DNA from: an uncultured Chloroflexia bacterium
GTDB lineage: Bacteria; Chloroflexota; UBA6077; JACCZL01
Direction: 5' to 3'
Length of the DNA: 64,000 bases
Assembly: GCA_963765765.1 (NCBI GenBank)
Contig: CAVXYC010000023.1
Span: forward strand, 320,001 to 384,000
Shown one piece after another: positions 3,971 through 56,843 of the stretch (positions within the stretch are counted from its first letter, which is position 1; every line of letters begins with the position of its first letter). Both the position numbers and the translations under genes were made by a program. The notes below the pieces were generated by a model that was not told the DNA's origin, made no database searches, and saw only the letters and a program-made list of their open reading frames with translations.

Positions 3971-5555
3971 GTGACGCGTCCCAATTTCATCATCTTTATC
4001 ACCGATCAGCATCGAGCCGATCACCTCGGCTGTTACGGCAATTCGATTGTCTCCACACCGCAACATTGACGGGTTAGCGGCGCGTGGCTGGCGGGCAGAC
4101 GAGATGCACGTGGCCTCGCCCATCTGCATGCCCAATCGCGCTTCGCTCATGACCGGGCGGATGCCGTCGTGTCACGGCACTCGCCATAACGGGATCGAGC
4201 TCTCGCTGGCCGAGCGCACGCTGCCTCAAGCGCTGGCAGAGGCAGGCTACCGCACGGCGCACGTGGGGAAGTCGCATCTGCAGAACATCGTGGATGCACC
4301 CGGGCAATATCCTCGACCGAGCGATCCGCCGCACGCCGGCGAGGCGCGTCAGGAAGATCCGAACAAGCACGGTCAGGAGGTCTGGCGCCGCTGGGAAGAG
4401 CATCCCGACTTTGAGATCCAAACTCCGTACTATGGATTCCAGACCGTCGACCTATGCATCGAGCATGGTGACGGCCAGTATGGTCATTGGCGGCGTTGGG
4501 TTCGCCAACAATCGCCCGAAGCCGATCGGCTCATCGGCGCGGAGCACGCCTTCCCCACGCCCGACGTTGCGCTCACAACGGCCGGGCAAGCCTGGCGCAC
4601 GCGGCTGCCGGAGGAGCTCTATCCCACGAGCTGGGTGGCCGATCGGGCCATCAGCCGCCTTGGTGAATTTGCCGCGACCGACGAGCCCTTCTTTCTCTAC
4701 TGTTCATTCCCTGACCCGCATCACCCGTTTACCCCGCCCGGGCACTACTGGGATATGTATCGACCCCAGGACATGCCGCTGCCGGCCTCGTTCGACGTTC
4801 CGCATCACGACCTGCCGCCGCACGTACGATGGCTCTGGGACAGGCGCGATGACGGAACGGCTGTGAAGAACAGTCCGGCGCCGTTTGCCTGCACTGCGCG
4901 CGAGGCCCGCGAAGCGCTCGCGTTGAATTACGGGTCGATCAGCTTTCTGGACGCGGCCATCGGCCGCGTGCTGGATGCGCTGCGGAGCCTCGCGCTGGCC
5001 GACGACACGGTGGTGCTCTTCACCTCCGACCATGGCGACTTTATGGGTGACCACCAGCTTCTGCTCAAGGGACCGATTCACTATCGTGGCCTGACGCGCG
5101 TTCCCTTTATCTGGATGGACCCCGGCGCCGGAAATGGCGATGGGGGTACTTCCACCGCGCTGGTGCAGACCACCGACATTGCGCCCACCGTCCTGGCCCG
5201 AGCCGAGGTACTACCGTGGCATGGAATCCAGGGCAGGTCGCTGATGCCGCTTCTGCACGACGAGGCGACCTACTGGCGGGAGTCGCTTCTTGTGGAGGAA
5301 GAGGGGCAGCGGTACTACATGGGCTTTCCGGATCGAGTGCGCACGCGCAGTGTGCTCACCTCGCGTTACCGCCTCTCGCTCTATGACGGAGTTTCCTGGG
5401 GTGAGCTGTACGATCGGGAGGGCGATCCAGAGGAAGTGAGAAACCTGTGGAACGACCCTGGCTCTGCCGCGCTCCGCGCCGAGCTGACAACGGAGCTGGC
5501 GAGAAGCATGATTGCCCACGCCGAGATATCGCCGGCGCCGACGAATCGGGCGTGA
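3971..5555 (+). CDS. Sulfatase (formylglycine-dependent); frameshift near 4060
   Basis: RPNFIIFITDQHRAD, CMPNRASLMTG (CxPxR), GKSHL, DPHHPF, TSDHG; GGAGG RBS. Confidence 0.9.
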
Positions 5556-6875: not shown

Positions 6876-6988
6876 CTGTAGCGCGGTGGTCTTGTGCCCC
6901 GCGCCACGATCGCTGTCGAATCCGGGCGCTGTCCGTTCTGACGGGCGGGCTTCCGGGCGCGCGAGGGCACAAGACCACCGCGCTACAG
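6876..6988. repeat. REPIN-like inverted pair (family A)
   Basis: 24-bp perfect inverted arms CTGTAGCGCGGTGGTCTTGTGCCC. Confidence 0.8.
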
Positions 6989-7008
6989 AAGCGGCGAGGA
7001 GACGTCGA

Positions 7009-8241
7009 GTGACCGAGTCTGCTTTGCCGCTGGAGGGGCTGAAAGTCCTGGAGCTCAGCCACATCGTGGCCGGCCCTTCATGTGGCCTCATCCTGGCTGA
7101 CCTGGGCGCCGAAGTCATCAAGATCGAGCAGCCCGACACGGGCGATACCTCGCGCAGCCATCCGAACCAGGGCAGCACCTTCTACGCCTACAACCGCAAC
7201 AAGCGCAGCCTGGCGCTCAATCTCAAAAGCGTTGACGGCAAGGAGATCTTCCGCCGGCTCGTAGAGCAATCTGACGTGGTGCTCGATAACTACGCCGCGG
7301 GCGCGTTGAGCCGCCTCGGAGTGGACTACGAGTGGGGCAGCAAAGTCAATCCCCGCATCATCTACTGCTCGCTCAAGGGCTTCTTGCCCGGACCGTACGG
7401 CTCACGGCCGTTTCTGGACGAGCTGGCCCAGATGGCGGGCGGGTTGGCCTATATGACCGGGCCGCCCGGGCGGCCGTTACGCGCCGGCGCTTCCATCGTG
7501 GACATCGGGGCGGCGACGTACGGCGTTGTCGGCATTCTGGCGGCCGTGTATCGTCGACAGGTCACCGGACGGGGCGAGTCCATTCAGTCGGGCCTGTTCG
7601 AGACGACGGTCTTCTGGATGAATCAACACATTGCGCGGGCGCAGCTTTCGGGCATCACGCCGCTGCCATTCGCTGCGCCAAAGGACGGGATGGGCAGCGT
7701 GATGGGCTGGGGCGTCTATCAGCTCTTTCCCACCAGTGACGGACGCGACGTGTTCATTGCCGTGACGGCGAACCGGCACTGGGCGAGCCTGTGTGAAGTA
7801 CTCGGCTTTGACGACTGGGCCAAGGATCCCGGCTTCGACAGCAACACCAAACGAGCGGAGCAGCGCATTCTCATCGCCGAACGGATCGCGGGCGAGACGG
7901 TGAAATACGGCTTCGATGAGCTGACCCGGATGCTGGACGATGCCGAGGTGCCGTATGCACCGGTGAACACGCCGATGGATCTGGTGGACGACCCGCAGAT
8001 GAACGGTCGCGAACACTGGATGCCGCTGGACGTGCCGGGCCACCCGGATCTGAAAGTGCCCGCTCTGCCGATAAGCATGGGCGAGACGCATTTTGAGGTG
8101 CGCCTCCAGCCACCGCGCCTCGGCGAGCACACGGACGAGATCCTGGCATCAATTGGCTATACGCCTGAGGAGATCGAAGCACTGAAAAAGCAGCAGGTTG
8201 TGCGGCGGACGGATGCGCTGCTGAACGTGGAGGATCCGTAG
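7009..8241 (+). CDS. CoA transferase family III (CaiB/BaiF)
   Basis: PLEGLKVLELSHIVAGP, LADLGAEVIKIE, NRNKRSLALNLK, PPRLGEHT. Confidence 0.92.
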   Translation: MTESALPLEGLKVLELSHIVAGPSCGLILADLGAEVIKIEQPDTGDTSRSHPNQGSTFYAYNRNKRSLALNLKSVDGKEIFRRLVEQSDVVLDNYAAGALSRLGVDYEWGSKVNPRIIYCSLKGFLPGPYGSRPFLDELAQMAGGLAYMTGPPGRPLRAGASIVDIGAATYGVVGILAAVYRRQVTGRGESIQSGLFETTVFWMNQHIARAQLSGITPLPFAAPKDGMGSVMGWGVYQLFPTSDGRDVFIAVTANRHWASLCEVLGFDDWAKDPGFDSNTKRAEQRILIAERIAGETVKYGFDELTRMLDDAEVPYAPVNTPMDLVDDPQMNGREHWMPLDVPGHPDLKVPALPISMGETHFEVRLQPPRLGEHTDEILASIGYTPEEIEALKKQQVVRRTDALLNVEDP

Positions 8242-54351: not shown

Positions 54352-54387
54352 CGAGCGCTCCGTGGAAGCGCTCCGTTTGGTAATGAG

Positions 54388-54403
54388 CGTTTCATGTGAA
54401 ACT
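54388..54403. promoter_or_regulatory. parS site 1 (left element junction)
   Basis: CGTTTCATGTGAAACT versus consensus TGTTTCACGTGAAACA. Confidence 0.7.
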
Positions 54404-54466
54404 ACTATATGCTTGAAACCCGTGACGGGTGCCGCATGCTGTCATCATACGGGTGATGTTGCGGTC

Positions 54467-55395
54467 AGGGCGGACGAACTGCATCTCAGCACGATAGCCC
54501 GGTACTTTGCGGACGAACAAAAGGCGTACAAGCTCCTCGAACGCATCCGCTGGCCCAACGGCCCGGGGTGCCCGCACTGCGGCACGGTGGACGAGACGTA
54601 CTACCTCGAACCCAAGGACGGCCCCGCACCACGCGCACCGGCAAGCAGACGTTCCGCCGCGTTTGGAAGTGCGCGCAGTGCCGCCAGCAGTTCTCCGTCA
54701 CCGTGGGGACGATCTTCGAGGAAAGCAAGATCCCGCTGGCCAAGTGGCTCATGGCGGTGCATCTGATGTGTGCCGGCAAGAACGGCGTGGCCGCGCTGGA
54801 ACTGAAGCGCACCCTCGCTATCAGTTTCAAGTCGGCCTGGTTCATGTGCCATCGCATCCGCAAGGCGATGGAGCGGGAGCCATTGGCCAGCAAGCTCGGC
54901 GGGATCGTGGAGGCCGACGAGACGTACATCGGCGGGGTCCGGAAGGTCACCAAGGCCGGACGCCCCGGCAAGGACTCCCACAAGACCGCCGTGGTGAGCC
55001 TGGTGGAGCGCGGCGGGGAAGTCCGCCCGCATGTGGTCAAAAATGTCAGCAGCTTGACGCTGCGCGATGTCATCACGGCGAATGTGGAGCCGAGCGCCAC
55101 GCTGATGACCGATTCATTCCACGCGTACGACCGGGTCGGGCGCACGATGGCCAAGCATGATAAGGTGGACCACGGCGCGGGCGAGTATGTGCGGAGCGAA
55201 GCCCACGTGCAGACCGCCGAGAGCTACTTCAGCCAGCTCAAGCGACCACTCGATGGCACGCAGCATCACGTGAGCAAGCAGCGTCTCGACCGCTACGTCT
55301 CGGAGTTCGACCACCGCTACAACACGCGGAAAATGAGCGACGGCAAGCGGACGGAACTGGCGATTCAGAAGGCCGCGGGCAAGCGGCTGGTATAG
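54467..55395 (+). CDS. IS1595-family DDE transposase; start uncertain, frameshift near 54625
   Basis: RWPNGPGCPHCG...WKCAQCRQQFSVTVGTIFE zinc ribbon, SAWFMCHRIR HTH, VEADETYIGG, LMTD, TAESYFSQLKR, RYVSEFDHRYN, GKRL. Confidence 0.92.
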
Positions 55396-55448
55396 AAGGA
55401 GCCAGTGACCGACTAGGCCCGGGCTCCTGAAAACGACGTATAATGTAG

Positions 55449-55552
55449 TGGTCCCCCGGACGGGGCTGGAACCCGTAGACCGGTTACCAGTTGACGCTAG
55501 GCCGGTCTCCCGATCCCAAATCGGGTGTGTCTACCAGTTCCACCACGGGGGG
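55449..55552 (-). tRNA. Atypical 104-nt class II tRNA-like gene: anticodon TGG (Pro) on a tRNA-Leu-type scaffold
   Basis: Acceptor CCCCCCG/CCGGGGG + A + CCA; D arm TGGTGGAACTGGTAGACAC; anticodon arm CCCGA-TTTGGGA-TCGGG; 32-nt variable region; T arm ACGGG-TTCCAGC-CCCGT. Confidence 0.85.
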
Positions 55553-55558
55553 CGGTGG

Positions 55559-55690
55559 GAAAGCCCCGGAGCCGCGCGTCTAGACAGCCTTGGCTCCGGG
55601 GCCGCTGATCTCCTCATATTCGAGCACCTCGTCTGATCAGTTGGGCGAGACCTAAGCCTCCGGAGTCGCGATCTTCCGGGGGCTTTTCTC
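55559..55690 (-). ncRNA. Structured leader upstream of the tRNA
   Basis: Hairpins 55563-55602, 55605-55640 and 55654-55685; alternative pairing of 55559-55570 with 55675-55688. Confidence 0.4.
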
Positions 55691-55703
55691 TTGCCGTCAG
55701 TTA

Positions 55704-55732
55704 AGTCTAGCAATTTATCTCCATCGAGGCAA
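55704..55732 (-). promoter_or_regulatory. Sigma70-type promoter for the leader and tRNA
   Basis: TTGCCT-N17-TAGACT with extended TG. Confidence 0.65.
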
Positions 55733-55774
55733 GGCTTCTGAAGATAAAATCACGGCGATGGTTCTCAGTTCTTA

Positions 55775-55803
55775 TTGCCAAGTCGGAGATACGCTGGTAG
55801 ACT
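55775..55803 (+). promoter_or_regulatory. Sigma70-type promoter for the passenger gene
   Basis: TTGCCA-N17-TAGACT with extended TG; GGAGG RBS and ATG follow. Confidence 0.65.
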
Positions 55804-55825
55804 TACAGCAGAACGGAGGCCAGAC

Positions 55826-56843
55826 ATGGTCCAAGCGGCAGTAGCGGAGCGGAAAAAGAAGGACCGCAGCCCGAGTTATCCGGCCATTGACCTGGAGACG
55901 GCGCTAGAACGAGCACGGCAGCTTCTCTCTAAAGAGGGTCGCCATTATGCGCCGATCAGCGCGATACTTCAGCACTGGGGATACGCCACTAAGAGCAGCG
56001 GCGGCCTGCTTACAACGGCCGCACTGAAGAAGTTCGGTCTCCTTGAAGATCAAGGGAGTGGCGAGAATCGGAAAGCACGGATCACTGATCTGGCATATCG
56101 CATCCTCATCGATGATCGGCCTAACTCAGAACAGCGTGCGGCGCTTATTCGCGAGGCGGCATTGACGCCGCCGATTCATGCTGAGCTGTGGCAGGAGCGC
56201 GGTCCCGACGGTTCACTCCCGTCCGACGTGACTTTGCGCTTCACTCTCCGCACTGAACGAGGCTTCACAGAGACCGCCGCTTCCGACTTGATCAACGAGT
56301 TTCGCCAGACGATAGCCTTCGCGGGGTTAGACCAGACTGATACAATGTCTGGTAGTGTCGAAGATAAAATCGACCCTGCGGGAGGCGAGCAAGCGACACC
56401 GCCGCCAGGGACTCAACTCGAAAAGCCGGGCTGCGAATCCGGCGAAGCCGCCAACGGCTGGTCCCGGCACGCAGTCTATAAATCTGCCGCTCGATGCTGC
56501 CGCCGGCGAATGGGCGACGCTGGTTGCGCCGTTCCCCCTCACTAAGGAGAAGTGGGATCAGATGCTGGTGGTCCTTGAAGCGATGAAACCGGCATTGATC
56601 GCCCAGCCAAAGCCCAAAGCCGGACCCGATAGGATGGTCGAGGAGATGGCCCAACCCTCGTCTATCACTGCCGAGGCGCAGGAACTGCTACAGAAGGTCG
56701 ATGACGGTGGGGTGCCGACGGCGATGACCGAGAACCTCAGGCGCATTGCCACCGAGAACGGCATTGCCGTCACTCCCGACATGAGCCCGAACAGCATCAT
56801 CGACGAACTTCAAGAAAGTCGCTTGATTGCTAGGGGGGCGTAA
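55826..56843 (+). CDS. Hypothetical passenger protein, probable winged-helix N-terminal domain; frameshift near 56430
   Basis: RSPSYPAIDLETAL...WGY..KS..G...AALKKFGLLE..G; continues in ORF 56355-56843. Confidence 0.65.

Follow-up and report, generated by a model that had tools for sequence, protein, structure and literature searches.

Can a transfer RNA (tRNA) that combines the body of a leucine tRNA with the anticodon of a proline tRNA be a functional gene, and what would such a molecule do for the bacterium or the mobile element that carries it? This question is raised by a 104-nucleotide (nt) element, here called X, at positions 55449–55552 (minus strand) of a 64,000-nt stretch of DNA from an uncultured Chloroflexia bacterium (contig CAVXYC010000023.1, positions 320,001 to 384,000), the whole of which we refer to as the window. 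A sequence-only reading had described X as a transposon-borne chimeric tRNA; its account of the sequence features proved accurate, and the interpretation attached to them partly right. Our analysis showed that X is a genuine, selectively maintained tRNA gene that belongs to a small, irregular class II lineage, and that it lies in a recurring module composed of a DUF5343-like gene, a pair of putative divergent promoters that mirror each other, a leader hairpin, an irregular tRNA, and an IS1595/IS1-type transposase or NYN gene. The function that we tentatively favor, with somewhat less than even confidence and on the basis of sequence features, is that of a missense tRNA whose anticodon does not match its body, kept under the control of a repressor, most probably a substrate of leucyl-tRNA synthetase (LeuRS), and belonging to an accessory, horizontally scattered module.

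Read from 55552 to 55449, X is a full cloverleaf with an encoded CCA end, as had been claimed. With the Rfam tRNA model (RF00005) it reached 41 bits, above the gathering score of 29 (E = 2.1e-07; 451 nt searched); the alignment covers all 71 model positions (1–71) and inserts 30 nt at the variable region. The 7-base-pair (bp) acceptor stem includes C1-G72 and a C6×C67 mismatch, and the body carries U8, U48, the A15/U48 pairing and A73. The D arm is of the leucine type, with three pairs plus G13×A22 and a 9-nt loop, and the anticodon loop UUUGGGA gives the anticodon UGG. The variable region of 32 nt is made up of one nucleotide, a 6-bp stem, an 18-nt loop and one further nucleotide; the T loop reads UUCCAGC, with C57, and the acceptor/T branch is 7/5 in the alignments to both the Rfam model and the covariance model introduced below. 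ARAGORN called no tRNA over the whole window, and the Rfam scan of the whole window at the default gathering threshold did not detect X, so that standard annotation would overlook the gene.

Evidence for the authenticity of X came from its homologues. A DNA search of 61 related genomes returned a single match, in a sister species (G001), with 82% identity across all 104 nt. A covariance model built from this pair (R1) scored X itself at 124 bits and the full-length homologues at 126, 83 and 56 bits, the latter two being located in a second Chloroflexota family (G115, contig L127) and on an IMG/VR contig (L106; L-numbers denote single loci or contigs). Counting X, there are thus four homologues from three lineages. 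Across 151 genomes sampled from the phylum, the next-best matches to R1 scored at most 64 bits, were 85–90 nt long and were taken for ordinary leucine tRNAs. X-like genes occurred in 2 of 39 genomes of the order and in 2 of the 151 genomes of the phylum sample, a tally that includes the unpublished genomes G100 and G196, both without an X-like match; a motif scan of 185,579 species genomes returned the G001 and G115 contigs only. X is therefore accessory rather than housekeeping.

All four homologues present UGG in a canonical 7-nt loop with U33 and a purine at position 37 (G37 in two of them), and all retain A73, U48, the A15/U48 pair, the leucine-type D arm and a variable arm of about 30 nt. 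The acceptor stems are wholly different among them, while the anticodon, A73, U48 and the type of D arm stay invariant. C1-G72 is found in the window and G001, G1-C72 in G115 and L106, and CCA is encoded in two of the four. Between the window and G001, the anticodon stem has undergone compensatory changes (28-42 from C-G to U-A, and 31-39 from A-U to C-G), and the stem of the variable arm remains paired. In a six-sequence alignment, fitted to the model, 96.3% of cells were paired and 25 of 30 pairs had been altered on both sides, values that none of 500 shuffles matched. The window and G001 share an identical 18-nt loop in the variable arm, and G115, in which the surrounding stems have changed, keeps its GUCAAC core; the second small helix that had been proposed within the variable region showed no covariation in G115 and was discarded. 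The G115 contig also holds a second irregular tRNA (L127 6870–6946, minus strand), which lies in tandem with the X homologue and 7 nt upstream of it. Its body is of class I with A73, and its anticodon loop, CCGCUAA, contains GCU and places C at position 33; it thus has a serine anticodon without the long arm needed by seryl-tRNA synthetase. The public title of this contig is "Proteobacteria bacterium", whereas kinship placed it in the phylum of the window genome, the sister species of which bears the title Chloroflexota.

This conservation bears directly on the possibility that X is a decaying pseudo-tRNA, namely a tRNA-Leu duplicate that has acquired an insertion and a changed anticodon and is now functionless. 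The window copy, taken by itself, could be read in this way: it combines C6×C67 and C57 with frameshifted neighbors on both sides, was overlooked by ARAGORN and by the default Rfam scan, has an unremarkable minimum-free-energy fold, and shares its genome with a degraded Leu(UAA)-like pseudo-tRNA. Public sequence data nevertheless speak for related copies without these defects. Contigs from four coded public runs were mapped onto 55300–55900, each of them partial and at a depth of 2–6; the shares of all X-holding public runs were small (at most 0.17). A soil/rhizosphere DNA contig spans 55415–55552 and a contig from an RNA library (metatranscriptome) spans 55489–55643. Both match the window at the anticodon, and the DNA contig also matches at G72 (depth 2–3); UGG is accordingly not a sequencing error, given the agreement of independent contigs. 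Both carry a plus-strand G>C change at 55547 (C6>G6 in the tRNA), by which the 6-67 pair is restored, and the DNA contig alone carries a plus-strand G>C change at 55468 (C57>G57, the usual purine), again at a depth of 2–3. The C6×C67 and C57 oddities pointed out in the sequence-only reading are therefore present in the window sequence and absent from the related soil contigs, and are either private to the strain or assembly-level. That reading had also allowed that polished bases might show TAG and G1-C72, as in an ordinary tRNA-Leu, or that homologues with covarying stems might be lacking; the contigs instead hold UGG and, in the DNA contig, G72, and R1 recovered homologues with covarying stems. 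With the anticodon, the long arm and, through compensatory change, the stems kept by four homologues in three lineages, with a G001 copy whose acceptor stem is perfect and whose T loop is canonical, and with G6 and G57 in related soil contigs, we consider a pseudo-tRNA very unlikely; this explanation fits the family poorly, and may describe the future of the window copy.

The RNA-library contig covers tRNA nucleotides 1–64 and 91 nt upstream. Such libraries may contain DNA; the extension of the contig to 55643 is compatible with a long tRNA leader, and transcription of X is possible.

The next question is which amino acid X would carry. The window genome (G000; 6.49 Mb in 33 contigs, 92% complete) already encodes tRNA-Pro UGG and CGG and all five leucine isoacceptors, and X is hence an extra gene alongside the housekeeping proline and leucine tRNAs. 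Its D-arm region is closest to the leucine tRNAs of its own genome (85% to Leu-CAG, with all five leucine tRNAs within the top 7 of 51), which, together with the ordinary leucine tRNAs as next-best matches to R1, supports the leucine scaffold that had been proposed. X resembles tRNA-Leu in the sequence and layout of its D arm and loop, G13×A22, A15/U48, A73 and its class II body with a long variable arm. It departs from tRNA-Leu in having UGG in place of a leucine anticodon (NAG or NAA), C1-G72 in this genus, and a variable region twice as long, with a conserved 18-nt loop; this region far exceeds those of the genome's own leucine, serine and tyrosine tRNAs, as had been supposed, and X is an accessory, module-linked gene rather than a core gene. 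The likeness to tRNA-Pro(UGG) consists of the NGG anticodon with G35 and G36, the purine at position 37, A73 and, in the window and G001, C1-G72, the combination of C1-G72 and A73 being the same as in the genome's own tRNA-Pro genes. Unlike tRNA-Pro, X lacks a class I body with a variable loop of 4–5 nt, has a leucine-type D arm and Levitt pair, and does not conserve C1-G72.

According to the rules established for E. coli, LeuRS does not read the anticodon and relies on A73 and the D-loop/Levitt architecture, and prolyl-tRNA synthetase (ProRS) of the E. coli type depends on G35, G36, A73 and G72; the Levitt pair of tRNA-Pro is G15-C48. Because LeuRS is blind to the anticodon and X keeps all of the LeuRS-type marks, charging with leucine appears most likely by analogy with these rules. 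The alternative is a class II-shaped tRNA-Pro that would be charged by ProRS through G35, G36, A73 and, in this genus, G72, and that would decode CCN codons correctly, as a spare copy carried by the module or a phage and, for example, escaping tRNA-cleaving toxins or defense nucleases. The invariant UGG of the four homologues, the C1-G72 and A73 shared with the genome's own tRNA-Pro genes, the location of one homologue on an IMG/VR viral contig (L106) and the NYN (PIN-like RNase) gene that follows the tRNA of G001 would all be consistent with this function. The proline identity set that the sequence-only reading had assigned to X, however, holds for C1-G72 in the window and G001 and is broken by G1-C72 in the other two homologues; the Levitt pair is A15/U48 rather than G15-C48, the conservation of every LeuRS-type mark would be unexplained if ProRS alone mattered, a search of the window genome with the G001 NYN sequence found no homologue, and a mismatch between identity and anticodon is a pattern of the entire family described below. 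We regard a tRNA-Pro function as unlikely overall, yet as the main rival to charging with leucine, and as most plausible for the window and G001 forms, which have G72.

The same genome contains other unusual tRNA calls. On contig C15 (168062–168147, minus strand), the ARAGORN call "tRNA-SeC(tca)" corresponds to a diverged copy of tRNA-Leu(UAA), identical over its last ~27 nt, with the loop altered to UCA, two 5′ acceptor mismatches and a compensated change in the variable stem. This copy is probably a pseudo-tRNA or the remnant of an attachment (att) site, and is formally a leucine body with an opal-type anticodon. On contig C1 (366691–366775), ARAGORN reported an 85-nt "tRNA-Pro(ggg)" that does not resemble the genome's two remaining tRNA-Pro genes and is probably spurious; in that case, the 92%-complete assembly yielded no tRNA-Pro(GGG).

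Upstream of X and divergent from it lies a conserved gene that the sequence-only reading did not mention (55826–56545, plus strand). It encodes a hypothetical protein, DUF5343-like and winged-helix-like, in which profile residues 6–198 are in frame to 56416; its C-terminal domain, matching family profile positions 199–264, continues in a second frame (56421–56627, plus strand), and the gene is therefore frameshifted near 56416–56421. The protein shares 31% identity (E = 2e-22) with the product of the gene in the same position in G001, and its family comprises at least 267 hypothetical proteins, none with a Pfam domain. In G115, a true DUF5343 gene lies directly upstream of the tRNAs, and in L106 the partner homologue is downstream of the tRNA. 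The window protein had no match in Pfam, nothing in PHROGs and PADLOC, no match in GenBank phages, and one weak match among PLSDB plasmids; the ESM Atlas returned unnamed clusters and a weak DUF5343 lead only. DUF5343 (PF17278) matched 4 of 50 family members weakly (best E = 1.4e-4), hhalign aligned the partner family with the G115 DUF5343 protein at a probability of 67% (E = 5e-5), and the AlphaFold2 model of the partner protein had a predicted local distance difference test (pLDDT) score of 84.5. Taken together, profile and model comparisons weakly suggest a DUF5343-like, winged-helix protein.

The intergenic region has a mirrored architecture. The promoter and repeat scans placed a promoter-like site of the partner gene at 55775–55803 (plus strand), in one arm (55775–55805) of an inverted repeat that is a probable shared operator; the other arm of this 31-nt inverted repeat, at 55702–55732 (minus strand), holds the putative X promoter, with a −35 element at 55732–55727 and a −10 element at 55709–55704. 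Comparable inverted repeats were found in the same intergenic region at other module loci. Folding of the 70-nt leader indicated a hairpin at 55563–55602 (minus strand) that ends ~10 nt before the 5′ end of the tRNA, and leader hairpins of differing sequence occur in G001, in L106, ahead of the G115 tRNA pair and at many module loci. Just upstream of this hairpin, alignment revealed a 10-nt purine-rich motif that is kept in G001 (55608–55617, minus strand), and the terminator scan detected a 12-bp hairpin at 55654–55685 that is terminator-like on the plus strand and lies within the predicted X leader on the minus strand. On the other side of X, a trailer motif just 3′ of the CCA (55438–55448, minus strand) appeared semi-conserved in module relatives by visual comparison; the conserved block of the window and G001 runs ~15 nt beyond the CCA, and similar trailers are present at other loci. 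A small open reading frame through the leader (ATG at 55617, minus strand, ending in the D loop) was rejected, as its G001 counterpart stops after three codons.

The partner protein gave access to a wider family. Searches of public collections yielded 102 loci from many phyla, some of them duplicate assemblies, and the 92 loci with at least 150 nt upstream were scanned for tRNA-like elements with a perfect 7-bp acceptor stem, a perfect 5-bp T stem and a TTC/TTT loop. A divergent-strand tRNA-like element was located upstream of the partner gene in 38 of the 92 loci, compared with 4 of 92 on the same strand, 0 of 92 in each of two gene-body controls and 1 of 92 in shuffled sequences. At least 40 irregular tRNA genes from many phyla were recovered through the partner gene, the majority not called by ARAGORN, which labeled those that it did call as Stop(tta), Gly(acc), Ala(tgc), Ser(tga) or Thr. 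After evident duplicates (L046, L056, L081, L088, L105) had been dropped, 36 rows were examined and three kinds were distinguished: short forms of 68–71 nt, long-arm forms, and ordinary-looking class I forms. G3:U70 and A73 were present in all 23 short forms. Their anticodon loops contained UUA in 12 cases (CUUUACA-type, with C37) and varied in the rest; none of the automated triplet calls was an alanine anticodon, several loops were degenerate, and three held UGC in another register. In many short relatives the anticodon arm is degenerate, and the match to the transfer-messenger RNA (tmRNA) model is confined to its tRNA-like domain. The long-arm forms comprise X in G001, L012 (a leucine-type body with A73 and the anticodon ACC), L013, L014/L104 and L054. 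An IS1-like DDE transposase gene lies downstream in 33 loci (55–67% identical to each other) and, at the inspected loci, begins 30–40 nt after the tRNA-like element on the same strand; other downstream genes are of the IS1595 type (6 loci), DDE_Tnp_1 (3 loci) or NYN (4 to 6 loci).

Several loci deserve separate mention. A GUCAA-like motif occurs in the variable-arm loops of the X homologues, in the leader hairpin loops of G115 (L127 ~6980–7010), G001 and L003 (~4010–4040), and in loops of L054, L058 and L086, and some short relatives carry it as their "anticodon" loop, CUGUCAA. GUC is among the most frequent anticodons of the allo-tRNAs known from the literature; the motif may nevertheless serve for binding and not as an anticodon. 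At L062 (1696–1766, minus strand), a 71-nt G3:U70 tRNA-like element has a central loop with CCUUGGA, and the IS1595 transposase gene that comes after it is convergent and shares 46% identity with the window gene. With the same UUGG loop and layout, this element may be a short cousin of X.

The claim that X is transposon-borne is not supported beyond the presence of a neighboring transposase gene. This IS1595-type gene converges on X and lies 45–48 nt from the 3′ end of the tRNA; its N-terminal zinc-ribbon piece is at 54362–54766 (plus strand; PF12760, E = 1.3e-09) and its ISXO2-like DDE piece, in a different frame, at 54568–55395 (plus strand; PF12762, E = 2.8e-37). Sequence reading revealed a hairpin between the 3′ end of X and the transposase stop (55397–55428), which the terminator scan did not call. 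The same convergent layout and spacing recur in G115, i.e., in two families, and the two regions are colinear over ~1.1 kb, the DDE piece corresponding to L127 5772–6712, next to which the homologous tRNA lies. The IS1595 gene of L106 (49% identical) is on the other side of the tRNA, and in G001 the tRNA is followed by the NYN-domain gene (PADLOC HEC-09). Other expectations of a transposon failed: no terminal inverted repeats around the module or transposase were found in 5 loci, in 13 loci of a further scan, or in the window and L127; high copy number was rejected, with 1–2 family members per genome in 5 genomes and a single one in the window genome; and the transposase genes of the window and G115 each have one frameshift, at different places.

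Two broader links between the tRNA-like elements and the transposases were also rejected. Self-suppression of transposase stops by the tRNA found no consistent in-frame stop in the IS1-like genes beside UUA tRNA-like elements, and most stops in the IS1-like alignments fall upstream of the true start. In a reverse test of the best 80 of at least 594 IS1-like relatives, among the 75 with at least 400 nt upstream, a perfect tRNA-like element was found in 10, the partner protein in 3 and both in 2; a tRNA-like element is thus not carried by all such transposases, and the module is a sub-lineage rather than a property of all of them. At L129, L139, L152 and L153, G3:U70 tRNA-like elements with UUUACA/UUUGCA-type loops lie upstream of the IS1-like transposase (at ~1601) with no partner gene within 1.6 kb, indicating a link between tRNA-like element and transposase without the DUF5343-like gene.

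The variability of the family raises the further possibility that X does not decode at all and is instead a tRNA-shaped RNA that serves the module as a processing signal or protein-binding scaffold. The DUF5343-like protein or the transposase would then bind the motifs in the variable-arm and leader loops, and the role of the tRNA body would be to ensure RNase P/CCA processing, to stabilize the RNA or to make sensing dependent on aminoacylation. Such a role would be consistent with the variable-arm loop that is identical in the window and G001 and retains its GUCAAC core in G115 amid changed stems, with the GUCAA-like motifs in the leader loops of G115 and G001 and in other loops of the family, and with the many relatives that have degenerate anticodon arms and match the tmRNA model in the tRNA-like domain only. 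It would also accord with the position of the tRNA-like element ahead of a same-strand IS1-like gene at the inspected loci, and with the translational inactivity of several irregular tRNAs reported in the available part of an earlier study (PMC5389517). The fully canonical loop and invariant anticodon of X would, however, be superfluous for a scaffold, and X cannot be the 5′ leader of the transposase, since the transposase is convergent with it in both the window and G115. We judge a purely non-decoding role to be rather improbable for X.

Comparison with known irregular tRNAs helps to place these findings. As described in the accessible portion of Mukai et al. 2017 (PMC5389517), allo-tRNAs are characterized by a branch of 8/4 or 9/3, by a D arm like that of tRNA-Sec and by a long variable arm; their identity is mostly serine, and 35 different anticodons occur among them. 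In the same portion, serine-identity tRNAs with leucine anticodons insert serine at leucine codons and halt the growth of E. coli, G3:U70 allo-tRNAs (UUA/GCG) that were re-given a CUA anticodon translated the amber codon efficiently in E. coli, irregular 7/5 and 8/4 tRNAs form polycistrons, and irregular tRNAs from soil data lie near transposon-related and toxin-antitoxin genes; the part available of a 2020 review (PMC7609411) repeats the allo-tRNA account. X resembles the allo-tRNAs in its long variable arm and in an anticodon mismatched to the identity of its body, their bodies being, in the text available, of serine or alanine identity (with anticodon-blind synthetases) and their anticodons those of another amino acid or a stop. 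It further resembles them in that its homologue in G115 sits with another odd tRNA, as in a polycistron, and the published G3:U70 UUA/GCG forms resemble the short tRNA-like elements beside the partner family. In contrast to the allo-tRNAs, X has a 7/5 rather than an 8/4 or 9/3 branch, and a 3-bp D stem and A73 in place of the tRNA-Sec-like D arm (long stem, tetraloop) and G73/U73.

Mistranslating variants such as tRNA-Ser(UGG) in yeast and human tRNA-Leu anticodon variants, as presented in the accessible parts of, e.g., PMC6827378 and PMC11028032, share with X a synthetase that is blind to the anticodon, so that an anticodon swap leads to missense incorporation. Those variants are single-base housekeeping variants or laboratory constructs, unlike X, which is a separate conserved lineage with its own partner gene and promoters. 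The accessible main text of PMC5389517 contains neither a combination of leucine identity and proline anticodon, with overlap with its supplementary sequence lists being possible, nor a 32-nt variable region, Chloroflexota hosts, or a DUF5343-like or IS1595/IS1 link. Our literature search returned no paper naming DUF5343 and none with both tRNA-like and IS1595, and a wider one yielded nothing pertinent. X is best placed among the known irregular tRNAs with mismatched anticodons, as a new leucine-type form with a 7/5 branch; we did not find its partner gene and promoter architecture described in the literature.

How a repressor-controlled missense tRNA would operate can be outlined from the arrangement of the module. 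The winged-helix protein would bind the inverted-repeat operator and hold both promoters low; upon transcription, the leader would be removed and the tRNA would mature. LeuRS would then charge X with leucine, possibly in competition with ProRS reading G35/G36, and the leucylated tRNA would read CCN codons as a natural Pro-to-Leu missense tRNA in the service of the module. It might act as a toxic or addictive effector, or as a stress or anti-invader switch. Because alanine- and leucine-type bodies with foreign anticodons occur throughout the family, and because killing of E. coli by such tRNAs has been published, a repressor-controlled mistranslating effector is the best single reading of X.

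A number of observations weigh against a mistranslating effector. The rules invoked for leucine charging are those of E. coli, and the host LeuRS is that of a Chloroflexota bacterium; the window and G001 copies hold the full E. coli-type ProRS set (G35, G36, A73 and G72), which makes charging by ProRS at least as arguable in these copies. A 32-nt arm with a conserved loop is unneeded for decoding and hints at another partner, and the degenerate anticodon arms or C37 of many relatives speak against decoding as the general task of the family. The control elements are also imperfect: Foldseek returned only weak MarR/winged helix-turn-helix matches to the partner model (best E = 0.026), and the hexamers of the X promoter match at 8 of 12 positions, just under the scan cut-off, so that the scan lists only the plus-strand mate. 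The single-sequence minimum-free-energy fold of X gave no cloverleaf and an ordinary stability (z = −1.72). Lastly, the window module is degraded, with frameshifts in both the partner gene and the transposase and with C6×C67 and C57 in the tRNA, and the window copy may consequently no longer work.

A more general proposal, which we consider doubtful, would extend the mistranslating effector from X to its relatives. The tRNAs of the family would then be repressor-controlled, codon-reassigning effectors of a new kind of mobile module, reassigning CCN to leucine (X), UAA to alanine (many relatives) and GGU to leucine (L012), with mistranslation as a toxin, addiction or anti-invader weapon, the DUF5343-like protein as its switch, and the variable-arm loop as an RNA handle.

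X-like genes are blind spots of tRNA annotation, and the partner gene offers a genomic handle that could unite the scattered observations of "allo-tRNAs" and "irregular tRNAs" into one system. Translationally active tRNAs have been tagged with a small hairpin aptamer, according to the available part of PMC7590224, and a translation-compatible tRNA with a 32-nt variable arm would be of interest to genetic-code engineering. tRNAs in which anticodon and amino acid are uncoupled seldom occur in nature, and few of them have been tested; if the proposed missense function is true, X would provide a ready-made test of deliberate mistranslation by bacteria or by the mobile elements that they carry.

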